Below, in pieces: positions 51,115 to 52,329 of a stretch of DNA of 64,000 bases; position 1 is the first letter of the stretch; every line of letters starts with the position of its first letter. Under the pieces are notes generated by a model, which saw only the letters and a list, made by a program, of their open reading frames with translations, made no database searches and was not told the origin of the DNA. The position numbers and the translations under genes were made by a program. Source of the stretch: Rhizophagus irregularis (Eukaryota); NCBI RefSeq assembly GCF_026210795.1, contig NC_089431.1, positions 744,001 to 808,000 of the forward strand. Reading direction: 5' to 3'.

Positions 51115-52329
51115 CTAGTAACTATACATATTGATAATATCAGATATTTCATCATTTTCTGCAGACTCCGATTCCGACTCTGGGTTGTGATCAGATTCTG
51201 AGTCTTCTGTTTCCGTATCACCTTTAGAATAATTATTTCCTGCATCGAGACCTATATAATGTCTTAATGCGATTTTTGTGAGATTGCTAAGATGCTGAGG
51301 GGTCGATTTGGGTCCACCATGAGTCCTGCAAGCATGTTTACCTCCTGTTTTTCTTAAATCCTTTGGGAGAGACTTATAAGGCTTTTGTTTTAAGAATTCA
51401 TTAAAGCTTCTAACATTACCAATATTACGTTTCCCATTTTTATCGTAGACAGGATCACGTAACTTTCTAGCCTTAATTGCCTCTTGAATCCAGATAAGCA
51501 ATTCCCTTGCACGTTCTGGATCCTTTTCCATAGAGAGAAATCGTCGTGGGTCCTTCTTCCCCTTATCCTTTTTATAACCTATGCAATACCAAGTATAACC
51601 CCTTTTATACCATGCGGGTGGATCCTCGGATTCTGGTTCATAGTGTATAATCTGAAGAGATGATACTTCTGAAGGTCTCATGCTCAACATCACAATCACA
51701 TCTGCGAGATTCTCTCGATTAGGTATTTTAGAAGTATCTATATTTTGAAGCCTTTCACGAACCCTCGCTAAGGAGAAGTGTGGGGGGATTCCATCCGAGT
51801 TAGCCATTGTCTCATCAGTTCGTTCTTTCTGAATTTTATTAGACTCTTGAATAAGTTCTGGATCTTTAGCAAGGGTATCAATAGTTGTGGTATCTACCCC
51901 ACCTTCTGCTAACTTCACACGGAATGTTGACTGACGCGAGGCAGCAGCAACGATTTCATTTTCATCTTTATTTTTCGGATCTAACTCCAAATGATGGGTG
52001 AAAATGTCCAAAGCAGTACCGGCCTTAGCACAGTATTTTGCCCTTTCTTCTATGGTGAGCTTTTCCTTTCTTTTGTCTGGCACGAGAACCCCTATCTGCT
52101 CTTTGCTAAATGCTTTTCTTTTTTTAGTGCCTCTGACAAGAAGATCTTTAATGCTCTTGCGGTCTGTCCAATCATGTAGTTGAGCATTAAGTTCTGGAGC
52201 ATGTTCTCTTAATTGTTCTAAGGTGGAGTTGGCCGACAAATTATACTTATCTAGGTGCTGTTCTAAAATCGTAACAAAGTTATTAGTTTTCAGCTTTCGA
52301 GTCTTCGGGATTGTTTTTCTGGTAGCCAT
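51115..52329 (-). CDS. Tyrosine recombinase of protelomerase-like type
   Basis: MLSMRPSEV (R), IGYKK (K), PKDLRK (K-x-x-R), ALRH (H) and NNY (Y) in the expected order. Confidence 0.6.
   Translation of the reverse strand: MATRKTIPKTRKLKTNNFVTILEQHLDKYNLSANSTLEQLREHAPELNAQLHDWTDRKSIKDLLVRGTKKRKAFSKEQIGVLVPDKRKEKLTIEERAKYCAKAGTALDIFTHHLELDPKNKDENEIVAAASRQSTFRVKLAEGGVDTTTIDTLAKDPELIQESNKIQKERTDETMANSDGIPPHFSLARVRERLQNIDTSKIPNRENLADVIVMLSMRPSEVSSLQIIHYEPESEDPPAWYKRGYTWYCIGYKKDKGKKDPRRFLSMEKDPERARELLIWIQEAIKARKLRDPVYDKNGKRNIGNVRSFNEFLKQKPYKSLPKDLRKTGGKHACRTHGGPKSTPQHLSNLTKIALRHYIGLDAGNNYSKGDTETEDSESDHNPESESESAENDEISDIINMYSY

Follow-up and report, generated by a model that had tools for sequence, protein, structure and literature searches.

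The window, a stretch of 64,000 nucleotides from Rhizophagus irregularis (NC_089431.1, positions 744,001 to 808,000), contains what survives of a virus-like element and, within it, an intact gene for a tyrosine recombinase (Table 1). G+C content is mostly 0.32-0.41 within this span of ~19.2-56.1 kb, compared with mostly 0.26-0.34 outside. The best PDB match of the family-B DNA polymerase (PolB) is 8ywg, which we take to be the ASFV polymerase, with an E-value of 9e-205 versus 1e-20 for the best non-related polymerase. A D5-type helicase adjoins the recombinase gene on its upstream side, and beyond it lies a likely primase, which its motifs lead us to regard as presumably AEP-like; the primase and helicase parts were both matched by two of the 449 retrieved proteins. 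The first-pass annotation of this DNA had placed the recombinase in the company of an RNA-primed PolB and a primase-helicase. PolB and the D5 helicase are indeed both there, although both are damaged in the window's copy.

Table 1. Features of the window and domains of the recombinase (positions in the window, or residues where stated).
Feature	Position	Strand	Remarks
DUF3504-like (Crypton/Glomhopper-type) tyrosine recombinase ORF	3120-3986	+	Pfam E 2.8e-5, below cut-off
Virus-like element, surviving span	19203-56090		raised G+C; multicopy, decaying
Asfarvirus-type family-B DNA polymerase (RNA-primed type)	~19137/19203-23036	+	Pfam DNA_pol_B 8e-44
DDE (rve) integrase	30350-31996	+	Pfam rve 1.1e-8; C-terminal extension
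Decayed ATPase, presumably packaging-type	32063-~32812	+	degenerate Walker A, internal stop; no Pfam match
Truncated second recombinase copy	~50470-51004	-	~71% DNA identity; downstream of intact gene
Protelomerase-like tyrosine recombinase	51115-52329	-	intact 404-aa ORF, ATG to stop, unbroken
Extra N-terminal helical domain of recombinase	residues ~17-82
Helical DNA-binding domain of recombinase	residues 90-155
Long linker helix of recombinase	residues 157-177		N164 and Q167 invariant
Catalytic domain of recombinase	R218, K254, R326, H357, Y367		followed by acidic tail
D5-type superfamily-3 helicase of primase-helicase	52743-54770	-	DUF5906 1.5e-19, Pox_D5 1.4e-6, PDB 6k9c 1.8e-7
Likely primase	54817-56094	-	frame differs from helicase; no Pfam or PDB match

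The span also holds Crinkler, LRR, Uma2, gag and protease genes and a nested transposon. The Crinkler-domain genes form a cluster (40568-46495), which suggests that this effector-like family is either carried by the element or drawn to it. The DDE integrase, if it belongs to the element, is a candidate for the enzyme that inserted the element into the host genome. We take the ORF next to it, from its motifs, to be a packaging-type ATPase, and the two together (30350-32812) might form the integration module of the element or, alternatively, a Polinton-like piece nested in it. No capsid gene was recognized among 34 window ORFs scanned with Pfam, several of which stayed without assignment, and the element's ends appear lost. 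Elsewhere in the window, an ORF without Pfam support (7124-8659, minus strand) presumably resembles, by its motifs, the N-terminal part of a Polinton/Maverick protein-primed polymerase.

The 5' end of PolB is cut by a small non-autonomous transposon, without target duplication, and the 5' end of the primase abuts a hAT transposon that likely cut it. Because transposons cut the one gene and adjoin the other, we infer that both natural ends of the element have been lost, each probably cut by a hAT-type transposon. Direct repeats of 1.3 kb (17885-19202 and 27821-29148) were considered as element termini and rejected, as they are copies of a non-autonomous transposon with terminal inverted repeats. 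These copies are 95% identical and carry 38-bp terminal inverted repeats; the copy at 27821-29148 has an 8-bp target duplication inside the gag gene, whereas the copy at 17885-19202, which lacks one, lies at the junction between a truncated retrotransposon pol and the truncated PolB. Between the two copies, 72 bp of the interior are inverted; this inversion was rejected as a flip-flop telomere. In Logan contigs of four DNA runs, 1,096-1,956 contigs matched the right-hand 20 kb at an identity of at least 90%, with many variant letters and alternative joints, which is consistent with many diverged copies of the element. Glomeromycota genomes have likely received many insertions of such a virus-like element with its asfarvirus-type polymerase. 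D5 sequence adjoins the recombinase gene in the window copy and in L032, one of the 36 short loci from metagenomes; it is also carried by 7 of the 449 gene models retrieved. An LRR gene lies beside the recombinase in 5 of the 36 short loci. Upstream neighbours vary among loci, many of which have a different common upstream gene, and linkage of the recombinase to PolB was seen in the window copy only.

The first-pass annotation had read R, GYKK, KDLR, LRH and Y in tyrosine-recombinase order in the 404-aa protein, and these are present as R218 (within MRPSE), K254, K323/R326, H357 and Y367. To count conservation we used an alignment (A4) of 104 sequences, most of them ~35% identical to the query, which were selected for coverage and non-redundancy, after removal of four long models and of two that were near-identical, and with 11 added by hand; counts give the rows with the residue at the column. 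R218 was found in 93 of 103 rows, K254 in 98 of 98, R326 in 94 of 103, H357 in 84 of 99 and Y367 in 96 of 98. The catalytic residues are thus kept across subfamilies ~35% identical. The GYxK strand motif is similarly conserved (G251 97/100, Y252 93/99, K254 98/98), and so is R356 of the RH motif (95/101). K323 of KDLR is poorly conserved, with K in 42 of 103 rows, S in 39, R in 15 and H in none. The H357 column has Q in 13 of 99 rows; in one subfamily of 13 rows (such as P0003-P0011), Gln replaces the catalytic His while the other catalytic residues are kept. R218 and R326 are replaced mainly by Cys and His, a pattern at both arginines that would fit CpG decay in dead copies.

Five of the 36 metagenome loci passed an intact-frame filter, and dN/dS over residues 90-372 was 0.25-0.34 against the four divergent intact copies and 0.46 against the near-identical one, showing that the recombinase gene is under purifying selection. 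Coverage of the gene was patchy in possible RNA runs, which may be DNA. The truncated second copy retains the N-terminal part up to the linker helix, contains a stop codon and a frameshift and has no catalytic domain; the arrangement of an intact gene and a truncated duplicate recurs in locus L002. A motif common to the upstream regions of both copies was rejected as a functional site, as it occurs only there and is part of the duplication.

A single-sequence search with the 404-aa protein found 91 homologues, of which all species-named ones belong to Glomeromycota, the closest being from Rhizophagus irregularis (91% identity). When 1.84 billion representatives were searched with a profile, 397 matches were obtained, and distant subfamilies ~35% identical came to light. 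With a profile of these distant subfamilies, 610 proteins were matched among 7,996 scored, and the species-named proteins among the best 120 of the 610 were again from Glomeromycota. Two ENA proteins without species name (P0229 and P0277) are ~280 aa long, 30-35% identical to fungal members and have full catalytic sets; they may come from a free element or from another host. No relatives of the family were found in IMG/VR, and sequence and HMM searches of Pfam, PHROGs and PDB gave no relevant match. In the mainly open-access literature covered, we found no report of a protelomerase in fungi.

To compare folds, we modelled residues 90-372 from A4, with no templates and no protelomerase rows in the alignment (pLDDT 91.7, pTM 0.79). 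When the model was compared with 48,161 PDB representatives using VIA-align, the top four rows were all protelomerases: TelA of Agrobacterium (Z 11.2, 255 residues aligned, rmsd 8.5; second row 11.1), TelK of phage phiKO2 (Z 10.5, 247 aligned, rmsd 8.2) and the catalytic domain of Borrelia ResT (Z 8.6, 133 aligned, rmsd 3.8). The next rows were SroF (8.0, a tie with ResT within the margin of VIA-align), MrpR (7.3), XerH (7.0), lambda Int (6.2), Cre (5.9) and variola topoisomerase (5.3). Re-alignment of 676 chains gave seven with Z of at least 8, all of them TelA or TelK, and 7.5 for the next. The TelA and TelK superpositions have a high rmsd, ~8 Å over ~250 residues, at 10-16% identity. Foldseek placed TelA at ranks 1-3 (E 7e-4 to 2e-3), with Tn1549 Int close behind (3.4e-3) and TelK at rank 37. 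A search of a viral fold library with the model returned nothing significant, with a phage integrase first and a coccolithovirus telomere resolvase fourth. A first model, built from 79 close homologues, was discarded: its catalytic half was unreliable (pLDDT 62), it put Cre above TelA, and its fold searches were uninformative. The first-pass annotation had called the gene protelomerase-like from a reading of motifs, and the fold comparison supports this, with TelA, TelK and ResT as best structural matches and not generic recombinases; as the catalytic residues are conserved too, neither outcome that it had named as refuting came about.

Two further approaches gave a similar picture. In the ESM Atlas, the recombinase matched a ResT cluster at 0.96 (169/256 features) and a giant-virus FirrV-1-B51 cluster at 0.95; PF16684 was present in 20 of the 30 matches and PF00589 in one, and for the distant homologue P0130, PF16684 was present in 19 of 30. 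Profile-profile alignment (hhalign) of A4 with 11 annotated protelomerases covered 200 columns that begin in the DNA-binding domain, span the linker and reach the catalytic Tyr; the linker helix and the five catalytic residues all fell in register (E 5.7e-4, probability 29%). Overall, hhalign probabilities were only 29-63%. After trimming, the score was 42.3 (E 6.9e-5) against protelomerases compared with 18.9 (E 0.11) against generic integrases, the controls being 13 integrases of one bacterial genome and 30 column shuffles (maximum 26.6). The signal came from the five bacterial protelomerases (33.9) and not from the six phage ones (18.8, no signal), and TelN of phage N15 alone gave no match. 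The invariant N164 falls, when mapped through two alignments, on TelA R205, which caps the hairpin (PMC3558466); linker residues vary among protelomerases (PMC3558466). Three differently based approaches, fold, ESM Atlas and profile-profile alignment, therefore point to protelomerases over ordinary integrases, and the 404-aa protein is predicted to fold like a divergent protelomerase.

At the sequence level, PF16684, the ResT/TelK catalytic HMM, did not match the query, nor any of 79 or of 104 members, among the top 25 families listed at E-values up to 1. Features of canonical tyrosine integrases were also absent, with no PF00589 match in Pfam and the HxxR histidine in 0 of 103 rows. The family thus works out as protelomerase-like by fold yet fails sequence-level membership of PF16684. 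The first-pass annotation had taken KxxR and GQxK as protelomerase hallmarks. These motifs turned out not to be diagnostic, because a Tyr occupies the HxxR position in TelA and ResT (PMC3558466) and the references vary: Lys stands at the position of the HxxR histidine in only 6 of 11, GQxK occurs in 8 of 11 and GxxK in 9 of 11. The family has GYxK, and so keeps the G-x-x-K strand motif with the catalytic Lys. Invariant in all 11 references are GRRxxE at the first Arg and GH at the His, in place of which the family has [SC][MI]RPxE and RH. Overall, this is a real, previously unannotated protelomerase-like family in Glomeromycota virus-like elements, and it very probably descends from protelomerases.

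We scanned 35.5 kb of the element (19203-27820 and 29150-56090) for palindromes, with phage tel loci as controls (N15 scored 23, PY54 22.5, phiHAP-1 45 and VP882 12, which is weak). No telRL-like palindrome was found in these 35.5 kb, the best score being 11 compared with 9-13.5 in ten shuffles. Beside the gene in related loci, which are short, no conserved palindrome was found either (28 of 36 loci aligned, 36 of 36 scanned). The first-pass annotation had proposed a conserved palindrome as a check; none turned up in the scanned part of the element, whose ends appear lost, or beside the gene in related loci. Strand-changing joints were absent among the 15 joints listed out of 166 in Logan contigs, which can hardly show hairpin ends. 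In a single locus, a long, high-scoring AT-rich imperfect palindromic repeat lies ~370 bases upstream of the gene (L024:255-348).

Two other candidates for telomere sites were rejected. The fold-back at 58807-59533 is a small transposon outside the element; it has 306-nt arms that are 93% complementary and nested palindromes, and lies in the right part of the hAT element. Each of the 25-bp palindromes found at 38390 and 39619 has three bases at its centre and scores no better than chance, and the first is within coding sequence. A short palindrome core, GAAC-N3-GTTC, occurs at 38390-38414 and 39619-39641 (at or in the ORF 38030-39619) and at 44067 (upstream of a gene of the Crinkler region); it is at chance level by score and is possibly a regulator site.

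The predicted structure is closest to the telomere resolvases of phages and Borrelia, and for this reason a free linear form of the element, ending in hairpins, is likely to have existed. By analogy, the most likely function of the gene would be that of telomere resolvase of this form, a reading to which we give a probability of roughly 55%. On the model of N15, Borrelia and the phaeoviruses, the free element would be copied to a dimer by its own PolB and primase-helicase, and a dimer of the recombinase would bind the palindromic junction. Y367, aided by R218, K254, R326 and H357, would cut both strands, and the overhangs would refold against the linker helix, sealing two hairpin ends. Insertion would be carried out by a separate enzyme, such as the nearby DDE integrase. 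The hairpin-forming activity, its target site and the free linear form of the element are extrapolated here from those systems.

ResT can fuse DNA ends in its reverse reaction, which counts for another reading, possible but clearly less probable, in which a protelomerase descendant has been repurposed as the element's integrase/excisionase, with att-like sites and a circular intermediate. The palindrome scans found none, the GRR and GH motifs are lost, and the element is multicopy and chromosomal, with 15-33 polB copies per genome (PMC10640383), all of which this reading would accommodate. However, the fold with its long linker helix is nearer to protelomerases than to any integrase, a DDE integrase is present in the same G+C-rich span, and the gene is internal and not beside a recognizable end, the ends themselves apparently having been lost. 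A replication accessory without a fixed site, either a topoisomerase-IB-like relaxase or a concatemer/branch resolvase comparable to baculovirus VLF-1, would also suit the tight linkage to the primase-helicase. The missing palindrome and HxxR-position histidine (0/103 rows) agree with such a role, and the viral fold search had VLF-1 and entomopoxvirus recombinases among its weak matches. We nonetheless consider it unlikely, given that variola topoisomerase reached Z 5.3 compared with 11.2 for TelA and that PF16684 dominates the ESM Atlas matches. Least probable is an unrelated tyrosine-recombinase family or small independent mobile gene whose protelomerase likeness is a modelling by-product: it would explain the lack of a sequence-level match in any library, the 10-16% identity in structural alignments, the ranking of Cre over TelA by the low-confidence first model and the varying neighbours, but three differently based methods agree and the alignment used for folding was free of protelomerase sequences and templates.

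With a telomere resolvase as the preferred reading, a broader and distinctly tentative picture can be drawn. AM fungi might host a widespread, capsid-less, self-replicating linear element, comparable to N15, with hairpin ends made by a protelomerase, an asfarvirus-type polymerase, Crinkler/LRR cargo and repeated chromosomal insertion, and the dozens of 'asfarvirus polB' copies in these genomes might in reality stem from it. Bacteria, phages and some algal giant viruses are the sources of the protelomerases known so far; the large Glomeromycota family adds fungi to this range. It likewise offers a life cycle that can be tested for the multicopy asfarvirus-type polB insertions of Rhizophagus, which have lacked an explanation. 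An active element would represent a rare case of self-replicating dsDNA in a fungal group in which genetic manipulation is difficult, and its enzyme would be a hairpin-forming tool adapted to eukaryotes.

Among known systems, the family resembles TelA, TelK, TelN and ResT (PF16684) in its predicted two-domain fold with a long helical linker (Z 11.2-11.7 for TelA, 10.5 for TelK and 8.6 for ResT). R-K-R-H-Y are in register with R255, K286, R366, H394 and Y405 of TelA, and the GxxK motif and the lack of His at the HxxR position are further likenesses. In contrast to these protelomerases, the fungal family has no PF16684 HMM match, GRR or GH and shows 10-16% identity. The fungal protein also has an extra N-terminal helical domain, and its subfamily a 17-residue insertion before the catalytic lysine; the gene sits in a eukaryotic host genome, and no tel palindrome was found in the scanned span. 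With Crypton/Glomhopper (DUF3504), Starship (DUF3435) and DIRS/Ngaro elements, it shares membership of the tyrosine-recombinase superfamily in fungal mobile DNA, but it has no Pfam match to these families, DUF3504 and DUF3435 included. The window's own DUF3504-like ORF gave no profile match with the family (hhalign score 15). Other mobile elements have been covered elsewhere (PMC13465315, PMC8647823); in the accessible text of the Glomhopper paper (PMC13465315), 'telomer' and 'primase' are absent.

Asfarviruses have hairpin ends but are not known to have a protelomerase. The asfarvirus-type PolB, the raised G+C and the multiple copies link the element to the fundsbetavirus/Asfarviridae-like polB insertions of Rhizophagus irregularis. 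The R. irregularis polymerase has been placed in Asfarviridae (PMC5294986), such insertions have been named fundsbetaviruses (PMC7017919), and Rhizophagus genomes have 15-33 asfarvirus-like polB copies each, with the major capsid gene not found in five genomes (PMC10640383). In the accessible parts of these papers, the polB copies are treated as traces of virus infection, and no protelomerase or recombinase is named (PMC7017919, PMC10640383, PMC5294986); in the PMC7017919 supplement, 'recombinase' occurs 0 times and 'resolvase' once, as a RuvC label. Phaeoviruses are complete giant viruses that possess capsids and att sites and in which a telRL-like fold-back site has been observed (PMC13236599), whereas the fungal element is decayed, at least 37 kb long, and has an asfarvirus-type PolB and no recognized capsid gene. 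The nearest functioning precedent comes from endogenous phaeoviral elements, which encode an integrase as well as a telomere resolvase and whose reads fold back at a telRL-like site (PMC13236599). The fungal element is like the phaeoviruses (EsV-1, FsV-158 and FirrV-1) and the resolvases of giant viruses in this respect, combining a protelomerase-like gene with a separate integrase in an endogenous eukaryotic DNA virus-like element.
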